Positions 3,951 to 35,768 of a DNA stretch of 64,000 nt are shown piece after piece (the stretch's first letter is position 1; each line of letters begins with the position of its first letter). The notes beneath the pieces were generated by a model. It ran no database searches. It worked only from the letters and a program-made list of their open reading frames with translations, and was not told the DNA's origin. This stretch comes from Staphylococcus phage vB_Sau_S24, in sequence record KY794643.1, one strand, 5' to 3'. The position numbers and the translations under genes were made by a program.

Positions 3951-4349
3951 ATGTCAAAAAAAGCAAGTGTATTTTATATACTGGTGGTTATTGTTTTGGC
4001 TTTTTCTATCTCATCTTATTATATATCATCTTTCATGTATCACGACAAAACAAAAAACCAAGTCTCTACTGAGTTATCAAACACAGGAGAGATTAAAGAA
4101 GAAAAGAACGTAGAATTTGTTAGTGACTATACATTGAAAGAGGTTAAGGATAATAAGGCTTATTTTATGGAAACATTACCTACGTACCTTCCAGGTAGAA
4201 CAGGAGATAACAGCATAGATATGAGGTACTACAAAACAAGTAGATTTAAAGAAGGGGTAAATTTCAAGCTTATTAGGGTATATACTGAAGATGGGGAAGA
4301 TAATCCAATTCATAAGTATAGGTTTGAGGCAGTACCAACCGAAAAGTAA
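3951..4349 (+). CDS. membrane protein (N-terminal TM)
   Basis: Hydrophobic N-terminus; RBS agaggtg. Confidence 0.5.
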   Translation: MSKKASVFYILVVIVLAFSISSYYISSFMYHDKTKNQVSTELSNTGEIKEEKNVEFVSDYTLKEVKDNKAYFMETLPTYLPGRTGDNSIDMRYYKTSRFKEGVNFKLIRVYTEDGEDNPIHKYRFEAVPTEK

Positions 4350-4495
4350 TAGGGGGTGACTAAAAATGACAGTACTTATTGTTGTCATCTTTATTGCTAT
4401 CATTTATTACTTATGGAACAGTGATTGAGTCAAGTTAATTCTTGACTCTCTTTTTGTTTTATGGTATATTAATATATAGGAAGGAGAGATTAACT

Positions 4496-11801: not shown

Positions 11802-11878
11802 AAAAAGTTTAAGAAACCTATTGACATTAGGTTTCTTTTATTATATACTAAGAGTATATTAAATAAGGAGGTTAACTT

Positions 11879-15880: not shown

Positions 15881-15913
15881 CCCTATTGACAAATAGGGGT
15901 TTCTATTATATAA
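15881..15913 (+). promoter_or_regulatory. Hairpin (CCCTATTGACAAATAGGGG) with TTGACA-N17-TATAAT consensus promoter embedded; doubles as terminator for the Nampt-like gene
   Basis: Inverted repeat plus exact -35/-10 hexamers at 17-nt spacing. Confidence 0.6.
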
Positions 15914-15944
15914 TATACCTATAATAAATAAGAGGAGGGTTAAT

Positions 15945-16533: not shown

Positions 16534-16600
16534 AAAACTTTAACTCTATCTATTGACTTAGGTAGAGTTTTATAGTATACTAAGAGTATATCAAATAAGG
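16533..16600 (+). promoter_or_regulatory. Promoter/operator cassette (copy 1): hairpin with TTGACT, -10 TATACT within the palindrome TATACTAAGAGTATA, RBS
   Basis: About 70 bp nearly identical to 21509-21578. Confidence 0.55.
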
Positions 16601-21508: not shown

Positions 21509-21578
21509 AAAAACTTTAACTCTATCTATTGACATAGGTAGAGTTTTACTATATACTAAGAGTATATCAAATAAGGAG
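21509..21578 (+). promoter_or_regulatory. Promoter/operator cassette (copy 2)
   Basis: Near-identical to 16533-16600. Confidence 0.55.
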
Positions 21579-28330: not shown

Positions 28331-28639
28331 ATGGAAATAAAAGAAATTGCAGATGCTATTATGGAGTTGTGGCAGATGGACGGGTACAAATGTTCAGAAC
28401 CTCCACTATATGAAAGCACAATCAATCACACACGCAAATATACGGCTTTAATCGTTTCTATTAAAGGAAACTATGAAACTGTTCAGATGTTCCGTAAAAC
28501 GCCTTTAATGAGCTTGAGAGGGCAAAGCCAACCGGCTAGCATGTTGGTTAATGTAATTGAAGATGTGATTATAATCGTATATGAAAATACGGTTTACGGT
28601 GTGAAAGATAAAGAAATAAAATTTATTGAAGAAATTTAA
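28331..28639 (+). CDS. early small protein
   Basis: Promoter TTGACT-N17-TAATAT at about 28237-28265. Confidence 0.45.
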   Translation: MEIKEIADAIMELWQMDGYKCSEPPLYESTINHTRKYTALIVSIKGNYETVQMFRKTPLMSLRGQSQPASMLVNVIEDVIIIVYENTVYGVKDKEIKFIEEI

Positions 28640-28737
28640 AAATAGGGGTTGCAATACCCCTTAAGATGTAGTAATATAATAGATGTAAGGGATAGCAACA
28701 CACCTTAAAAACTTTTTTAAAAAGTTAAAGAAAAGTG

Positions 28738-28843: not shown

Positions 28844-29104
28844 ATGACAAACACAAACAAACAATTTAAAAGATTTGAAGATATGGTAGCAGACAAATTG
28901 GAAATTTTGAAAAATGTTGATATTGATAATATTGAAGAATTTGAATATAATGAAATTATGGGGGTTACGATTGAATTAACTACAATGATTTTTACAACAA
29001 AGGAATTAACAGAAATTACAGAATCAGAAATTGAACAACATATTAAAAATGAAATTGGATTGACTATTGACGATTTACAACAATTAGAAAATAGTTTTTA
29101 CTAA
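28844..29104 (+). CDS. early small acidic protein
   Basis: Promoter 28738-28766; conserved UTR aggatttgattattATG. Confidence 0.45.
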   Translation: MTNTNKQFKRFEDMVADKLEILKNVDIDNIEEFEYNEIMGVTIELTTMIFTTKELTEITESEIEQHIKNEIGLTIDDLQQLENSFY

Positions 29105-29220
29105 ATTTAAAAATAGGGCTTGCAAAAGCCCTAAAGATGTAGTAATATAATAGATGTAAGGAACACAAGCACACGGAACAGAAATTAAATAAAAAAATTA
29201 TAGAATAGGATTTGATTAAT

Positions 29221-29920: not shown

Positions 29921-29958
29921 TAGAATTCCCTAGGATTAAATTCCTAGGGATTTTTATT
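29921..29958 (+). terminator. Rho-independent terminator TCCCTAGGA-ttaaat-TCCTAGGGA plus T-run
   Basis: Perfect 9-bp stem followed by tttttattt. Confidence 0.6.
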
Positions 29959-30656
29959 TGTTTCAATTTATATAAAAAAATTATTTAATAAAAAAATTAG
30001 TGTAAAATTGACTGTTGACAAGAATATATTTTTTATGGTATAATGAAGTGAAGACCTTTTTTAGTATAAAAATATTATTATATAAAAAATTTATATTAAA
30101 TGGTTTTAAAGCCCCTCTTTCTCCCCACCTTGTCATATTTATAGTGGAAGGGTTAGGCGGGTTACCACTGTTTTACTTTCTATATATAGTATACTATGAA
30201 TAACGGTAATTGTCAACACCTTTCAGAAACTTTTTTTACTTTCTTTTATTATTATATAAAAAAATTATATATAAAAAAAGGCTCCAATTCCATTATATAA
30301 TAATTCGGACTTATTGTCAATACTTTTATTAAAAAAAGTTTTTTAAATTAATTTCAATAAATCTATTGACTTATCTTTTATTATCCTTTAATATATAGGT
30401 ATACCAACAAGGGAGGTAATACAAATGCTAAAATTCAAATGGAAAAACAAAACAATTAAATCAACTCAAAAAACAGATAACATTCTTTTACTTATTATAG
30501 GTGGTTTAGTTGCAACAGTCACACCTAAACTTGTAAATTGGTTTTTACTACTACAAGATAACATAAACATTTTTATTAAATAAGTGTTGACAACTTAGAA
30601 ATTACATGTTAATATTAAGATAACAAATAAAACAACTGAAAAGGAATTGATTAATT

Positions 30657-30965: not shown

Positions 30966-31127
30966 GTGTTGACAATCTAGAAATTACATGTTATTATTAA
31001 GGTACAAGGTAAGGGAAGCGGTTGACCGCTTCCAACCTAGTAAAAAAAGTTTTAAAAAACTATTGACAGTCACTTGAAACCATGATATTATTAAGATAAC
31101 AAATAAACAGAAAAGGAATTGATTATA

Positions 31128-31454
31128 ATGAAATTTATCAAAACTATCGAAAACTTATTAGAAAAAGCCGAAAACAAAGGGGAAGCAATTTTAAATGGTC
31201 GTATGAACATGGGTTGGGGAATGTCTGGAGGACTTGAAGAAAAATATGCAATTGAGATTGACGGTAATAAATTAGTTATGAGACATTGGGGAACACAAAC
31301 AATTGAGATTGACTTAAGCATGAAAGAGATTGTTTCATACTATGGAGAGTCTAACAGTGATAGAGATAGCCTAAACACGCTCGTATATTGCCTAGGGATT
31401 GCACCAAACTTCCGTTACTTGCCTAGCAAAGATTTATTCATTTACGAAAATTAA
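31128..31454 (+). CDS. early small protein
   Basis: Promoter at about 31064-31092; UTR aaaggaattgattataATG. Confidence 0.45.
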   Translation: MKFIKTIENLLEKAENKGEAILNGRMNMGWGMSGGLEEKYAIEIDGNKLVMRHWGTQTIEIDLSMKEIVSYYGESNSDRDSLNTLVYCLGIAPNFRYLPSKDLFIYEN

Positions 31455-31533
31455 TTAAATAAAGGGCTTGACTTCCAAGCCCTAGCATGATATACTTGTA
31501 TTAACAAATCAAAGAGAAAAGGAATTGATGAAA

Positions 31534-31935
31534 ATGTTCAAATTACAAAATAAAGTGGAAATTATCGTACCTAAGGAAGATAACAACGGTGTTGAGATTG
31601 ACGACTTAGCAATTCGTGAATCATTAGAAAATATCACTAAAATATGTGGAGGTTGTACTACTACAGACGTTAAAGGTCAATGGTATTCAGACAATGAACA
31701 ACGTATCATGCAAGACAATAACACTAACCTTGAATGGTACTATAATAAGGCTATGGAGGACGTGAACGACCAACAAGGGCTATTAAAAGGCTTATCAGAT
31801 ATTACTAGAATTCTAATCACTGAGTACGGTCAAGAAGGCATTAGCATTAAAATTAATGGTACACTATATATCATTGATGAAAGTGATTTAAATTTCTTAT
31901 CTTATGAATTATACGCTTTAATGTTTAAAAATTAA
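31534..31935 (+). CDS. early small protein
   Basis: Hairpin promoter 31464-31482; UTR aaaggaattgatgaaaATG; hairpin terminator at about 31959-31990. Confidence 0.45.
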   Translation: MFKLQNKVEIIVPKEDNNGVEIDDLAIRESLENITKICGGCTTTDVKGQWYSDNEQRIMQDNNTNLEWYYNKAMEDVNDQQGLLKGLSDITRILITEYGQEGISIKINGTLYIIDESDLNFLSYELYALMFKN

Positions 31936-32174
31936 ATAAAAAATTTATATAAACCGCTTCGGATTAAATTCTTGAAGCGGTTATTTTCTTTTAAATTAGG
32001 GCTTGACAAATGTACGAAAAAATGAGATAATGAAGTGATGACTTTTTTTCGTATAAAAATAATATTATATAAAAAAATTATATAAATGAATTTAGTTCGG
32101 CTCTTTCCCGATACCCCTCTTGGGCATCTCTGGTATCTCTACAATTATTATTATACTATGAGTAAGGGAAAAGG

Positions 32175-32669
32175 TCAACCCTTTCCCTTAAATTCTTTTA
32201 AAATATATTTTACAGAGTCTAAACTTAAATTATATTCCTTTGCTAGCATTGGCATGGTATACTTATATGGTTTATACTTTTGTTGTATTTCTTTGATTTC
32301 TTTTTGTGTTGGTGCTTTACCTCTTTTGTATCTAAAATCATCAGTTTTATTGTGGTGTGTGGTGTGTTCTAATGGGCTAATACATTCTAGGTTATCAATA
32401 CAGTTATTTTGTTTATTACCGTCTATATGGTGGATATGGTAGTCTTTGTTGAAGTCTGTTCCAAAATACTCATATACAAGCCTATGCACTCTGATATTTC
32501 TTTTTGCTATCCTAACTGTTGAATACCCTTTTTTAGTTGCAGAATGTTTTAAAATACGCTCTTTTCCTTTGATGTTACTTTTAACAATACCATTACTAGA
32601 AACATAATATTTATTATTTTCATTAGATAATTTTTTTATAAGTTTCCAAATTTCTTTTATTTCTTTCAT
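32175..32669 (-). CDS. free-standing HNH homing endonuclease
   Basis: HNH motif HRLVYEYF…HIHHIDGNKQNNCIDNLECISPLEH; opposite strand inside a plus-strand block; RBS aggagg after revcomp. Confidence 0.8.
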   Translation of the reverse strand: MKEIKEIWKLIKKLSNENNKYYVSSNGIVKSNIKGKERILKHSATKKGYSTVRIAKRNIRVHRLVYEYFGTDFNKDYHIHHIDGNKQNNCIDNLECISPLEHTTHHNKTDDFRYKRGKAPTQKEIKEIQQKYKPYKYTMPMLAKEYNLSLDSVKYILKEFKGKG

Positions 32670-32929
32670 ATAATATTCCTCCTAGTTTTTGATTCTCTCT
32701 TTTATTATATAATAATTTGCCCCCAATGTCAAGAACTTTCTTCAAAATAATTTATTTAAAAAAGTTTCATAAATCTATTGACTTATCTTTTATTATAGTG
32801 TAATATATAGAGTGTAATAAGGAAGCGGAACACTTAAAAAAAGAAATTAAAAAACTTTTAAAAAAGTGTTGACAAACTTCCAACCACATGTTATTATTAA
32901 TATATACTAAAGAAAAGGAAATGATAATT

Positions 32930-33184
32930 ATGAAAAAAACATTCGAGCAAGCTTTAAACCACGCACAAGAGGAAATCAGACAAGGCAACTTAGGGGAAAC
33001 AATTGTAACGCTTCAAATAGCATTAAGAAGCAAAGGAATTGTCAAGGTAAGCCAGTTCATGTGTCACAGAAATATGGACGTTGAAACTTTCAAAAATAAA
33101 GCAATCAAAAACATTTGGGAAAACTTTGAAACAAGCATTGAAGAGTCTGACCTAGAATTACCTTACACAGTGATTTGTAAATAA
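32930..33184 (+). CDS. early small protein
   Basis: Promoter TTGACA at about 32872; UTR aaaggaaatgataattATG. Confidence 0.45.
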   Translation: MKKTFEQALNHAQEEIRQGNLGETIVTLQIALRSKGIVKVSQFMCHRNMDVETFKNKAIKNIWENFETSIEESDLELPYTVICK

Positions 33185-33430
33185 ATTAAATAAAGGGGTT
33201 GACATCCAACCCCTATCATGTTAATATTAGAGTATAAAGAAAAGGGAGGAAATACAAAATGGCAAATTCAAACTTAGGCAACATTCAAAAAATGGCGGAC
33301 AAATTCATGCCACCTGCAGGCTATCCAAATAAGAAGAAAAAGCAAAGCAAAAAGAAATAAAAAAATCTAAATAAGGGGTTGACACTTAACCCCTTAGATG
33401 TTATTATTAATATATACTAAAGAAAAGGAA

Positions 33431-33604
33431 ATGATGACAATGACAAAAACAATCAAACAATTAGAAAGCCAACTTGAAAGGCTAGAAAGAAAATCAGATG
33501 AGGAGTTAGCAAACGGATATTATGATTCATTTGAAAGAACATGTGCACAGATTAGAGAATTAGACCTACAAATCGAATTAAAAAAGAATTCAGAAACTGT
33601 TTAA
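33431..33604 (+). CDS. early small protein
   Basis: Hairpin promoter 33376-33394; same promoter and UTR as 32930. Confidence 0.4.
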   Translation: MMTMTKTIKQLESQLERLERKSDEELANGYYDSFERTCAQIRELDLQIELKKNSETV

Positions 33605-33691
33605 AAAAATTAAATACAGGGCTTGACACTCAAGCCCTAAACCCTTATAATTAGAATTAACAAATAAAACAAATGAGAGGAATTGATAAAC

Positions 33692-33928
33692 ATGAAATTA
33701 TTAAACCAAGAAAATCAAATCGTAATTAGCATAGTGACACTTGAGAGTGTCAAAAAAGCCCTAATTTGGGAGTACATCGACCACATAGACAATAACATCC
33801 TAGGCAATAAACTTTATGACACAGAAGCGGTTGTCATTACTTCTGAGACCTTGCAGTCAATCAAATTTGCAGAGACTATGGAAGACCTACAGGAATGCAT
33901 TGCAGATATTAATTGGAAATTAGTTTAA
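33692..33928 (+). CDS. early small protein
   Basis: Hairpin promoter 33622-33640. Confidence 0.4.
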   Translation: MKLLNQENQIVISIVTLESVKKALIWEYIDHIDNNILGNKLYDTEAVVITSETLQSIKFAETMEDLQECIADINWKLV

Positions 33929-34018
33929 AAAAGTTTTAAATAAGGTCTTGACTTCCAAGCCCTACAATGGTAATATTAAGGTAGTTAGAAAATACTAAAT
34001 GAAAAGGAATTGATTATA

Positions 34019-34363
34019 ATGACAAACTTACTAAACACTATTGAAATGGATTTTGAATATAACGGAGTACAATTTGAGGGAAATTGGAAACATAATGCCT
34101 ACACTGTAGAGCTAACGCATAATGGAGTTACAGAAGAATTTGACTGGAAACAAGGCATGGGAATTTACGAAGAGCCTGAACTAGAAAGAATTTTAGAAAG
34201 CTTAATGCTAGATATTCATTACTATGAAGAAGATATCTATTCAATGTATGAGGACGAAGAACAGGCAGAAAAAATAATTGAGCAGTTAAAAGGGCAAACT
34301 AAAAAGGTAAATAAACTATTTACAGATGAGGAACAAGCAGAGCTAGTTGAATATTTTGAATAG
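34019..34363 (+). CDS. early small acidic protein
   Basis: Hairpin promoter 33945-33963; UTR aaaggaattgattataATG. Confidence 0.45.
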   Translation: MTNLLNTIEMDFEYNGVQFEGNWKHNAYTVELTHNGVTEEFDWKQGMGIYEEPELERILESLMLDIHYYEEDIYSMYEDEEQAEKIIEQLKGQTKKVNKLFTDEEQAELVEYFE

Positions 34364-35721: not shown

Positions 35722-35737
35722 TATCTAAAATAAAAAA

Positions 35738-35768
35738 GAGGAGGTATATTCCCCCCCTCCTCTCTTAC
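35738..35768. terminator. Bidirectional terminator hairpin AGAGGAGG…CCTCCTCT between convergent transcription units
   Basis: Inverted repeat flanked by A-run and T-run contexts. Confidence 0.5.

Follow-up and report, generated by a model that had tools for sequence, protein, structure and literature searches.

What is the role of a G+C-rich hairpin that is placed on the -35 hexamer of a strong promoter? This question is raised by a stretch of 64,000 nt from Staphylococcus phage vB_Sau_S24 (KY794643.1), a Kayvirus-like staphylococcal myovirus; the whole stretch is called the window here. In an initial annotation of the window such hairpins had been noticed at positions 31464-33963, and they had been interpreted as terminator/promoter fusions. 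The architecture is real and conserved, and it had been spotted correctly. Its interpretation went too far for the flagged sites: a fusion of terminator and promoter is established only outside the flagged interval, at sites that are present in published tables. We favor the interpretation, and give it about an even chance, that the sites are composite cassettes of the promoter-early stem-loop (PeSL) type, which would unite a promoter, a stem-loop with a role in the upstream transcript, and points of recombination.

With phage vB_SAP01 the flagged stretch shares 89% identity, and 256 Staphylococcus phage records match it. It is contained in the long terminal repeat, which was delimited by comparison with annotated relatives to about 25-35.7 kb of the window. 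The repeat carries small rightward 'Tre' genes for proteins of 33-136 amino acids, each with its own cassette, and leftward genes from 35.7 kb onward converge on it. The comparisons covered the terminal repeats of 15 Kayvirus-like phages as well as some from more distant phages. The gene content of the repeat varies among all 15 relatives, and the cassettes are located between the small, variable early genes of this hyperplastic region.

The hairpin promoters of the terminal repeat are composed of a -35 hexamer TTGAC(A/T), a spacer of 17 bp, a TATAAT-like -10 hexamer, and an A-rich segment from -60 to -42. They have the features of sigma-A promoters, with a -35/-10 distance of 17 +/- 1 bp and a ribosome-binding site (RBS) and an open reading frame (ORF) downstream. 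A -10 hexamer 17 nt past the -35 had been claimed for every site, and it is indeed present at each of them. At least 11 sites had been counted; it was found that there are 12 on the plus strand (-35 hexamers at 4442, 11821, 15886, 16553, 21529, 28649, 29120, 31468, 33199, 33379, 33623 and 33948) and an additional one on the minus strand (32178).

The pattern exceeds chance. A fold of -8 kcal/mol or below over positions -49 to -13 was found for nine of the 53 strong promoters on both strands, whereas 200 shuffles of the flanks, with the -35 kept fixed, yielded an average of 1.08 and never more than 5. Conversely, 31 perfect hairpins (at least 7 bp with at least 3 G-C pairs) are present in the window, and seven of these bear the -35 of a promoter. 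It is a minority design, as about 80% of the strong promoters of the window have no such hairpin.

Hairpin promoters inside and outside the terminal repeat

The sites fall into two classes. Class 2 comprises the flagged cluster at 31463-33963 and two TTGCAA variants at 28644 and 29114, which are all inside the terminal repeat:

31463..31496, plus strand: class 2, family A; hairpin 31463-31483 (AGGGCTTG/acttc/CAAGCCCT), RNA -13.5 kcal/mol; -35 TTGACT 31468-31473, TGn and -10 TATACT 31491-31496
33194..33227, plus strand: class 2, family B; hairpin 33194-33214 (AGGGGTTG/acatc/CAACCCCT), RNA -13.5 kcal/mol; -35 TTGACA 33199-33204, TGn and -10 TAATAT 33222-33227; after the stop of ORF 32888-33184
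33372..33407, plus strand: class 2, family D; hairpin 33372-33396 (TAAGGGGTT/gacactt/AACCCCTTA, or 11 pairs with one G-U); -35 TTGACA 33379-33384, -10 TATTAT 33402-33407; after ORF 33259-33360
33618..33651, plus strand: class 2, similar to family A; hairpin 33618-33638 (AGGGCTTGA/cac/TCAAGCCCT), RNA -14.0 kcal/mol, z = -4.6; -35 TTGACA 33623-33628, consensus -10 TATAAT 33646-33651, no TG; after ORF 33398-33604
33943..33976, plus strand: imperfect chimeric cassette; hairpin 33943-33963 (AGGTCTTG/acttc/CAAGCCCT, one T-C mismatch); -35 TTGACT 33948-33953, -10 TAATAT 33971-33976; drives ORF 34010-34363
28644..28677, plus strand: TTGCAA variant; small hairpin 28644-28661; -35 TTGCAA 28649-28654, -10 TAATAT 28672-28677
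29114..29148, plus strand: second TTGCAA copy; hairpin 29114-29133 (TAGGGCTTG/caaa/AGCCCTA..., 8 bp); -35 TTGCAA 29120-29125, -10 TAATAT 29143-29148

The stems of the cassettes have 8-11 bp, with RNA folding energies of -13.5 to -14 kcal/mol and z-scores of -3 to -4.6. A second copy of GGGCTTGACTTCCAAGCCC had been claimed at 33945 and does not exist; at 33944 the sequence reads GGTCTTGACTTCCAAGCCC, its stem contains a T-C mismatch, and its RNA folds with -6.3 kcal/mol instead of the -13.5 to -14 kcal/mol of the other flagged sites. All other strings that had been quoted were found in the window, at 31464, 15881, 11813 and 29116 exactly as given, while several further coordinates were off by 1-3 nt and are corrected here to 33195 (not 33198), 33375 (not 33376), 33619 (not 33622) and 28645 (not 28646). 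At 11821, 15886, 16553 and 21529 the -35 is in the loop, as had been described. At the flagged sites the hexamer is split between AC(A/T) in the loop and TTG(A), which pairs at the inner end of the 5' arm, and at 4442 it occupies the 3' arm.

Class 1 comprises the sites 4442, 11821, 15886, 16553 and 21529, which are situated upstream of the terminal repeat. They are listed here together with the example from the minus strand:

11811..11849, plus strand: class 1 overlap; hairpin AAGAAACCTA/ttgacat/TAGGTTTCTT, -35 11821-11826 in the loop; T-tract TTTTATTA in the spacer, -10 TATACT 11844-11849, no TG
15881..15914, plus strand: class 1 overlap; hairpin CCCTATT/gaca/AATAGGG, -35 15886-15891; T-tract TTTCTATT in the spacer, -10 TATAAT 15909-15914
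16542..16581, plus strand: class 1 overlap; hairpin CTCTATCTA/ttgact/TAGGTAGAG (one U-G), -35 16553-16558 in the loop; TTTTATAG in the spacer, -10 TATACT
21518..21557, plus strand: class 1 overlap; hairpin CTCTATCTA/ttgaca/TAGGTAGAG, RNA -12.9 kcal/mol, -35 21529-21534; TTTTACTA in the spacer, -10 TATACT
4427..4470, plus strand: class 1 overlap with the -35 in the 3' arm; hairpin GAGTCAAG/ttaatt/CTTGACTC; T-tract TCTTTTTGTTTT, TGn and -10 TATATT 4465-4470
32150..32189, minus strand: hairpin 32164-32189 with TTGACC (32178-32173) in the loop; -10 TATAAT at 17 nt

In class 1 the plus-strand tail of the hairpin is a T-tract within the promoter spacer (5-6 T in 8 nt), so that these sites have the U-tract of an intrinsic terminator. 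At the class 2 sites such a U-tract is absent from the plus strand; the spacer ends with ATGn-TATxAT, has no T-tract, and the tails contain 2-4 T in 8 nt. The minus-strand tails contain 4-5 T in 8 nt, which are the complement of the A-rich UP region. Because this complement follows, a terminator scan lists the class 2 hairpins as terminator-like on the minus strand, and the hairpin 33372-33396 scores as terminator-like on both strands. With these T contents, the flagged hairpins therefore have no proper U-tract in either direction. The site 31463..31496 may serve as an example: it starts 9 nt past the stop of ORF 31119-31454 and drives ORF 31525-31935, and its tails are AGCATGAT on the plus strand (2 T in 8 nt) and TTATTTAA on the minus strand (5 T in 8 nt).

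The last bases of the spacer appear to follow an either/or rule. The -10 hexamers at 11844, 15909, 16576 and 21552 are preceded by a T-tract and have no TGn extension. Four of the five class 2 promoters with TTGAC keep the TGn (31491, 33222, 33402 and 33971), and a T-tract is found in none of the five. Since the spacer can accommodate either a T-tract without TG or a TRTGn without T-tract, it is suggested that class 2 trades termination efficiency for promoter strength.

Published transcript data demonstrate early promoter activity and class 1 termination in relatives. For phage vB_SauM-515A1, steps in the coverage of RNA sequencing (RNA-seq) defined 58 early promoters and about 42 terminators (43 in the table; PMC7698491). 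The tables include the pairs t194/p195, t204/p205, t174/p175, t69/p68, t198/p199 and t165/p166 and, in addition, t13 (PMC7698491, Tables S2/S3). Three class 1 sites are orthologous to entries that are given both as a terminator and as an early promoter. The sequence of 11811..11849 equals t194/p195 across hairpin, T-tract and -10; 15881..15914 is the orthologue of t204/p205, for which the 515A1 stem is ACTCCCT/AGGGAGT, and pairing is thus retained in another register; and 4427..4470 corresponds to t174/p175. The minus-strand site at 32178, which follows the HNH endonuclease gene and has an RNA folding energy of -16.8 kcal/mol, is the orthologue of 515A1 t13 and of phage K terminator no. 5. TTGAC occurs in 19 of the 43 listed 515A1 terminator sequences and within the core hairpin in about nine. 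Class 1 resembles the pairs of 515A1 and phage K in having a hairpin with TTGACA in the loop or the 3' arm and a T-tract in the spacer; for these phages both the ends and the starts of transcripts were drawn from RNA-seq coverage steps.

The claim of a terminator/promoter fusion could be upheld for class 1, because the T-tract is in the spacer and orthologues are listed as terminators, and it is not supported for the five flagged sites, with their T-poor plus-strand tails and with no end listed at the phage K orthologue of 31468. The class 2 families A-D differ from the class 1 pairs in that they are not listed as terminators in the tables of 515A1 and phage K, and these phages carry one such hairpin or none. 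The phage K table does list terminators such as CCACCTATTGACATAGGTGG (PMC9241854). Promoter no. 10 of phage K at 6690 (gp017; TTGACTTTCAAGCCC...), the orthologue of 31468, is an early promoter (PMC9241854, Tables S2A/S2B). At the orthologue of 28644..28677 in phage K/515A1, a 'marked end of transcription' (S2B no. 3, position 4128) coincides with the early promoter p11, which is curated.

Structural conservation and exchange of the cassettes

Absence of stem conservation among related phages had been named as an outcome that would speak against the design. The comparison revealed that the stems are kept as structures by compensatory changes. Kayviruses have 1-5 hairpin promoters per terminal repeat, which belong to the families A (AGGGCTTG/CAAGCCCT), A' (AAGGCTTG/CAAGCCTT), B (AGGGGTTG/CAACCCCT), C (GAAGCGGTT/AACCGCTTC) and D (TAAGGGGTT/AACCCCTTA). 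In a set of 26 distinct sequences in the same register, pair 9-21 is CG in 13 and GC in 13 and is never unpaired, and pair 6-24 is G-C in 23 and A-U in two. The number of cells with double changes was 22, compared with 11.6 in shuffles, and none of 500 shuffles reached 22. The covariation signal collapsed once the partners were slid by one column. As a single site, the hairpin of 33194..33227 is kept in the relatives L001-L019, either with the loop acatc or with an additional A-T pair.

Orthologous intergenic positions carry different hairpin families in different phages, and the stem is always paired. Ahead of the gene for 'MTKTIKQLE...' family D is present in the window and family C in FS19-1, SAP01 and S25-4; behind the same gene, family A is present in the window and family D in these three phages. 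The coding sequence of a 54-amino acid gene (MTKTIKQLESQLE...) is well kept between the window (33340-33660) and the relatives L004 (6160-6520), L001 (8880-9250) and L006 (8370-8720). The hairpin promoters ahead of and behind this 54-amino acid gene are of different families in different phages, and therefore the regulatory cores were exchanged independently of the genes.

The cassettes form a dispersed repeat family. Each intergenic cassette comprises a UP region, a promoter, a leader and an RBS, and alignments between the cassettes of the window extend over 45-120 bp with 70-91% identity. When homology breakpoints were determined relative to the 15 relatives, the cassettes, with 24.8% of the region, contained 33 of the 68 distinct breakpoints (p = 2e-5). 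One cassette, at 33948, is chimeric: its flanks resemble hairpin-less orthologues in SAP01 and FS19-1, and its core of about 20 bp resembles family A, which explains the imperfect stem.

Further copies were observed at two places. The cassettes 16542-16581 and 21518-21557 are nearly identical, including the leader and the RBS (aaaaaactttaactctatctaTTGAC...TATACTaagagtatatcaaataaggagatg), although they are 5 kb apart and outside the repeat, and cassette duplication is therefore not confined to the terminal repeat. The TTGCAA sites belong to a 72-bp element at 28632-28703, which is repeated at 29103-29174 with 87.5% identity, so that it follows two consecutive genes; a G/C swap with compensation distinguishes the stems of the two copies. 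A longer hairpin of the first copy, GTTGC...GCAAC, encloses the whole promoter and competes with the small one for the same CCCC.

PeSL-type cassettes and alternative explanations

PeSLs have been described for the T4-type phages RB49/phi1, PST and nt-1 (Arbiol et al., 2010, PMC2839356; Comeau et al., 2014, PMC4122927). They form five subclasses according to the position of the stem-loop, one of which overlaps the -35, and one PeSL stem-loop lowered the expression of lacZ to the same extent as rrnB T1 (PMC2839356). Orphan genes of hyperplastic regions have PeSLs on their flanks, through which modules are shuffled (PMC2839356; PMC4122927). The cassettes of the window share with them a strong early promoter of the host sigma-70 type, an A/T-rich upstream segment and a G/C-rich stem-loop within or beside the promoter. 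They are likewise located between small orphan early genes, have about 100 bp in common between copies, and coincide with the boundaries of indels and replacements. Recombination within or beside the stem-loop has been mapped for PeSLs, and the chimeric 33948 cassette is the counterpart in the window. However, a Herelleviridae phage of a Firmicute is compared here with T4-like phages of Gram-negatives, and the likeness is one of analogy or convergence, not of homology. In addition, the stem in the window is built from the -35 itself (TTGA/TCAA as inner pairs), in contrast to the commonest PeSL positions between -35 and -10 or over the -10. Further traits of the PeSL class are attenuation or termination of upstream transcription by the stem-loop, which published tables show for orthologues of class 1 only, and the excision of mini-circles by recombination between flanking cassettes.

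In the PeSL-type reading, three parts make up each cassette: the A-rich UP region, a strong sigma-A promoter (TTGACA and TATAAT at 17 bp, often with TGn) and, on the -35, the G+C-rich stem-loop. The neighbors of the cassettes are small early genes, both in the long terminal repeat and in the right-arm early region of the Kayvirus-like phage. The promoter part would fire immediately after infection. As the stem-loop is upstream of the start of its own promoter, it would be made only in RNA that reads through from an upstream promoter. In class 1 the T-tract of the spacer would complete an intrinsic terminator, and an element of about 45 bp would end one unit and start the next. For the class 2 hairpins we infer an activity at the RNA level, and the strand on which they act is assigned in the same manner: they may attenuate read-through, or fix or protect the 3' end of the upstream message, and they may limit transcription pile-up and occlusion of strong promoters that are only 180-400 bp apart. 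Because the cassettes are dispersed and conserved over about 50-120 bp, they could act as recombination points at which small early genes and cassette cores are exchanged. Roadblock termination by an RNA polymerase at the overlapping promoter was also considered and was rejected, as an incoming polymerase would probably stall about 70 nt upstream, before the hairpin has been made.

In phage therapy of S. aureus, Kayviruses are the phages mainly used, and the genes of their terminal repeat are expressed first. If the PeSL-type reading is true, self-contained cassettes that are swapped between phages would explain the mosaic gene content of the repeat, and they would be natural boundaries for annotation and engineering as well as compact insulated expression units for synthetic biology in S. 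aureus. The PeSL idea would then reach an unrelated family of myoviruses, as a convergent answer to the packing of many strong early promoters. The central mechanistic question is attenuation by a hairpin without U-tract in a Firmicute.

It had been stated that the design has not been characterized for staphylococcal myoviruses. This is correct insofar as the literature searched contains no discussion of the overlap: nothing was found there on a -35 within a hairpin in staphylococcal phages, the 515A1 and phage K papers list the elements separately, and the words 'overlap' and 'hairpin' do not occur in a 2023 review. A link between PeSLs and Staphylococcus phages was equally absent from the literature searched. 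The statement is too broad in that overlapping pairs stand in the published tables and that the T4-type PeSL work describes and partly tests the design (PMC2839356).

Several observations weigh against the PeSL-type reading. Plus-strand tails with 2-4 T in 8 nt are far from the 6-8 T of the canonical terminators in the window. Three co-directional junctions within the repeat (30587, 30969 and 35176) have no strong hairpin. For phage K, neither a terminator nor a marked transcript end is listed between 5150 and 8370 (tables of PMC9241854; annotation of NC_005880), which is absence of evidence, as a co-located promoter would mask a drop in coverage. In the per-gene expression of phage K, the level falls by about 1 log2 after length correction from gp016 to gp017, which has the hairpin promoter, and it falls at least as much from gp017 to gp018, which has a hairpin-less promoter; the phage K data therefore give no specific support to attenuation. 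The independent compensatory events are few, about 4-6, as the sequences are related, and the wobble asymmetry, with about two independent events in favor of each strand, does not identify the acting strand. Furthermore, only 1-2 of the 14-15 promoters in Sciuriunavirus terminal repeats have a hairpin, none of 10 promoters in the early region of a Lactobacillus Harbinvirus has one, and no G+C-clamped hairpin lies over any -35 in the host-takeover module of SPO1. The design is largely absent from these three groups and is therefore not essential to such early regions. By this comparison of sequences, the class 2 design is a trait of the Kayvirus lineage. The protein of ORF 31525-31935 matched only four loci in IMG/VR, which are all Kayvirus-like, and an Rfam search at E <= 1 over 24-37 kb yielded three sub-threshold chance hits, none of them at the hairpins.

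Each of the alternative explanations fits fewer observations than the PeSL-type reading. Compared with canonical bidirectional terminators, the class 2 hairpins have a similar G+C-rich stem of 8-10 bp, a loop of 3-8 nt, a location 5-15 nt past a stop codon and an A-rich upstream flank; unlike these terminators, they have no downstream T-tract, and the upstream A-tract is the UP region of the promoter. It could be envisaged that they serve on the minus strand as fail-safe intrinsic terminators against antisense transcription, with the T-rich complement of the UP region as a tail, but this is unlikely. The antisense transcripts would originate from the leftward promoters 30216, 30320, 32178 and 32732, or from read-through from beyond 35.7 kb, and consensus leftward promoters are indeed present in the repeat. 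The consensus scan reports terminator-like structures on the minus strand at 31483..31463, 33214..33194, 33396..33372, 33639..33617, 29133..29114 and 28661..28644, and the tails are richer in T on this strand than on the plus strand (4-5 versus 2-4 in 8 nt). However, this is still below the canonical 6-8, and the A-rich upstream block is also found at hairpin-less promoters, so that it was not selected for termination. The leftward promoters are separated from most of the hairpins by stronger bidirectional terminators (29927-29950, 31950-31975 and 35732-35765), and the conserved hairpin 31014-31033 has a T-tract on neither strand. Moreover, there are no leftward genes in the class 1 region, class 1 orthologues have been published as plus-strand terminators, and no minus-strand terminator is listed for the phage K orthologue.

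Equally improbable is the possibility that the hairpins are functionless palindromes, carried along as duplication and gene conversion multiplied the promoter cassettes. In favor of such hitch-hiking, cores are swapped by patchy conversion within this family of dispersed repeats, only a minority of the promoters have a hairpin, and most of the hairpins were lost from relatives such as phage K. Hitch-hiking does not account for the roughly 8-fold enrichment over shuffled flanks, for the convergence of several unrelated stems on the same position relative to the -35, or for the compensated changes without unpaired intermediates at pair 9-21. Paired stems were also retained at orthologous sites through family swaps, and members of class 1 are demonstrated terminators in a relative.

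The inverted repeats might instead be duplex operators, at which a dimeric phage or host protein would cover the -35 and shut off or time some of the immediate-early promoters. The perfect dyad symmetry is centered on or beside the -35, and in the phage K transcriptome study early shut-off was attributed to a proposed factor that binds to the -35 region, with gp126 and gp201 as candidates (PMC9241854). Nevertheless, operators are quite unlikely. The stems differ between families (GGGC, GGGG, AGGC, GCGG, CCTA...), the loops have 3, 5, 7 or 8 nt, G-U pairs are tolerated in family D, and the repeat is missing from most early promoters. The two arms always change together, which is the prediction for base pairing and not for the recognition of fixed half-sites. 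Because unrelated stems converge, loops vary from 3 to 8 nt and G-U pairs are tolerated, base pairing is favored over a fixed protein half-site.

Hairpins at early promoters are also found in the lytic phage N4. Its virion RNA polymerase uses short hairpin promoters (5-7 bp) on extruded single-stranded DNA, and the hairpin itself is the recognition element. The window resembles N4 in having a short hairpin at an early promoter of a lytic phage, and it differs from it by the ordinary sigma-A -35 and -10 elements. Staphylococcal Herelleviridae phages encode no RNA polymerase (PMC10383478), and together with the full sigma-A consensus this distinguishes the sites from promoters of the N4 type.

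A stronger version of a class 2 function, in which the hairpins would be a genuine switch and not a weak terminator, is very unlikely in our estimation; it would require either efficient termination without a U-tract or a shut-off by extrusion. Transcription could end with the assistance of a factor (NusA/NusG-type, Firmicute-specific), and the A/T-rich -10 region of the promoter could replace the U-tract, which would be a new terminator grammar. Alternatively, extrusion in supercoiled, replicating DNA could turn off immediate-early promoters and thus be a structure-based early shut-off. It is extremely unlikely that the -35 is hidden by extrusion of the repeat, be it as a hairpin in single-stranded DNA or as a cruciform under supercoiling, and that the promoters thereby respond to topology. 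The DNA hairpins have -8 to -9 kcal/mol with DNA parameters (z about -4 to -7 versus shuffled controls) and G+C cores amid very A+T-rich flanks, a composition that favors extrusion. However, the arms of only 8-9 bp at best reach the length generally regarded as sufficient for extrusion at physiological superhelicity, family D tolerates G-T positions, and the phage injects duplex linear DNA; the occlusion of the -35 on extruded or single-stranded DNA, as proposed in the initial annotation, is unsupported.

Neighboring elements in the terminal repeat

A further hairpin was found between two promoters of the repeat. Promoter P30969 is followed, about 10 nt into its transcript, by the conserved 8-bp G+C hairpin 31014-31033 (GGAAGCGG-TTGA-CCGCTTCC) and then by the promoter at 31063, with no ORF between the two promoters. 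A T-tract is present on neither strand. In relatives the loop is either TTGA or its inverse TCAA, and the entire 20-mer thus occurs in both orientations. The position of this hairpin is that of the small RNA snc003, which has been reported for phage K. As it has no T-tract on either strand, it points to the bare hairpin as something that recurs in this repeat.

The leftward ORF 32175-32669 (minus strand) is the orthologue of an annotated HNH homing endonuclease of vB_SAP01. Its flanks recur 2 kb to the left with 81-84% identity, as 30040-30121 is similar to 32027-32107 and 30292-30398 to 32704-32810. The distance between the two segments is 171 bp in the left copy, compared with 597 bp in the copy with the HNH gene. 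Judged from the sequence, the two copies look like the empty and the occupied version of one insertion site within one genome. In phage K the HNH gene is located at the position that is equivalent to the empty copy.

In addition, the consensus rightward promoter 32003 faces the leftward promoter 32178, which is situated inside the terminator hairpin of the HNH gene, across about 100 bp without an ORF. The two facing promoters should give rise to overlapping small sense and antisense transcripts. A paralogous arrangement of facing promoters is present at 30015-30216.

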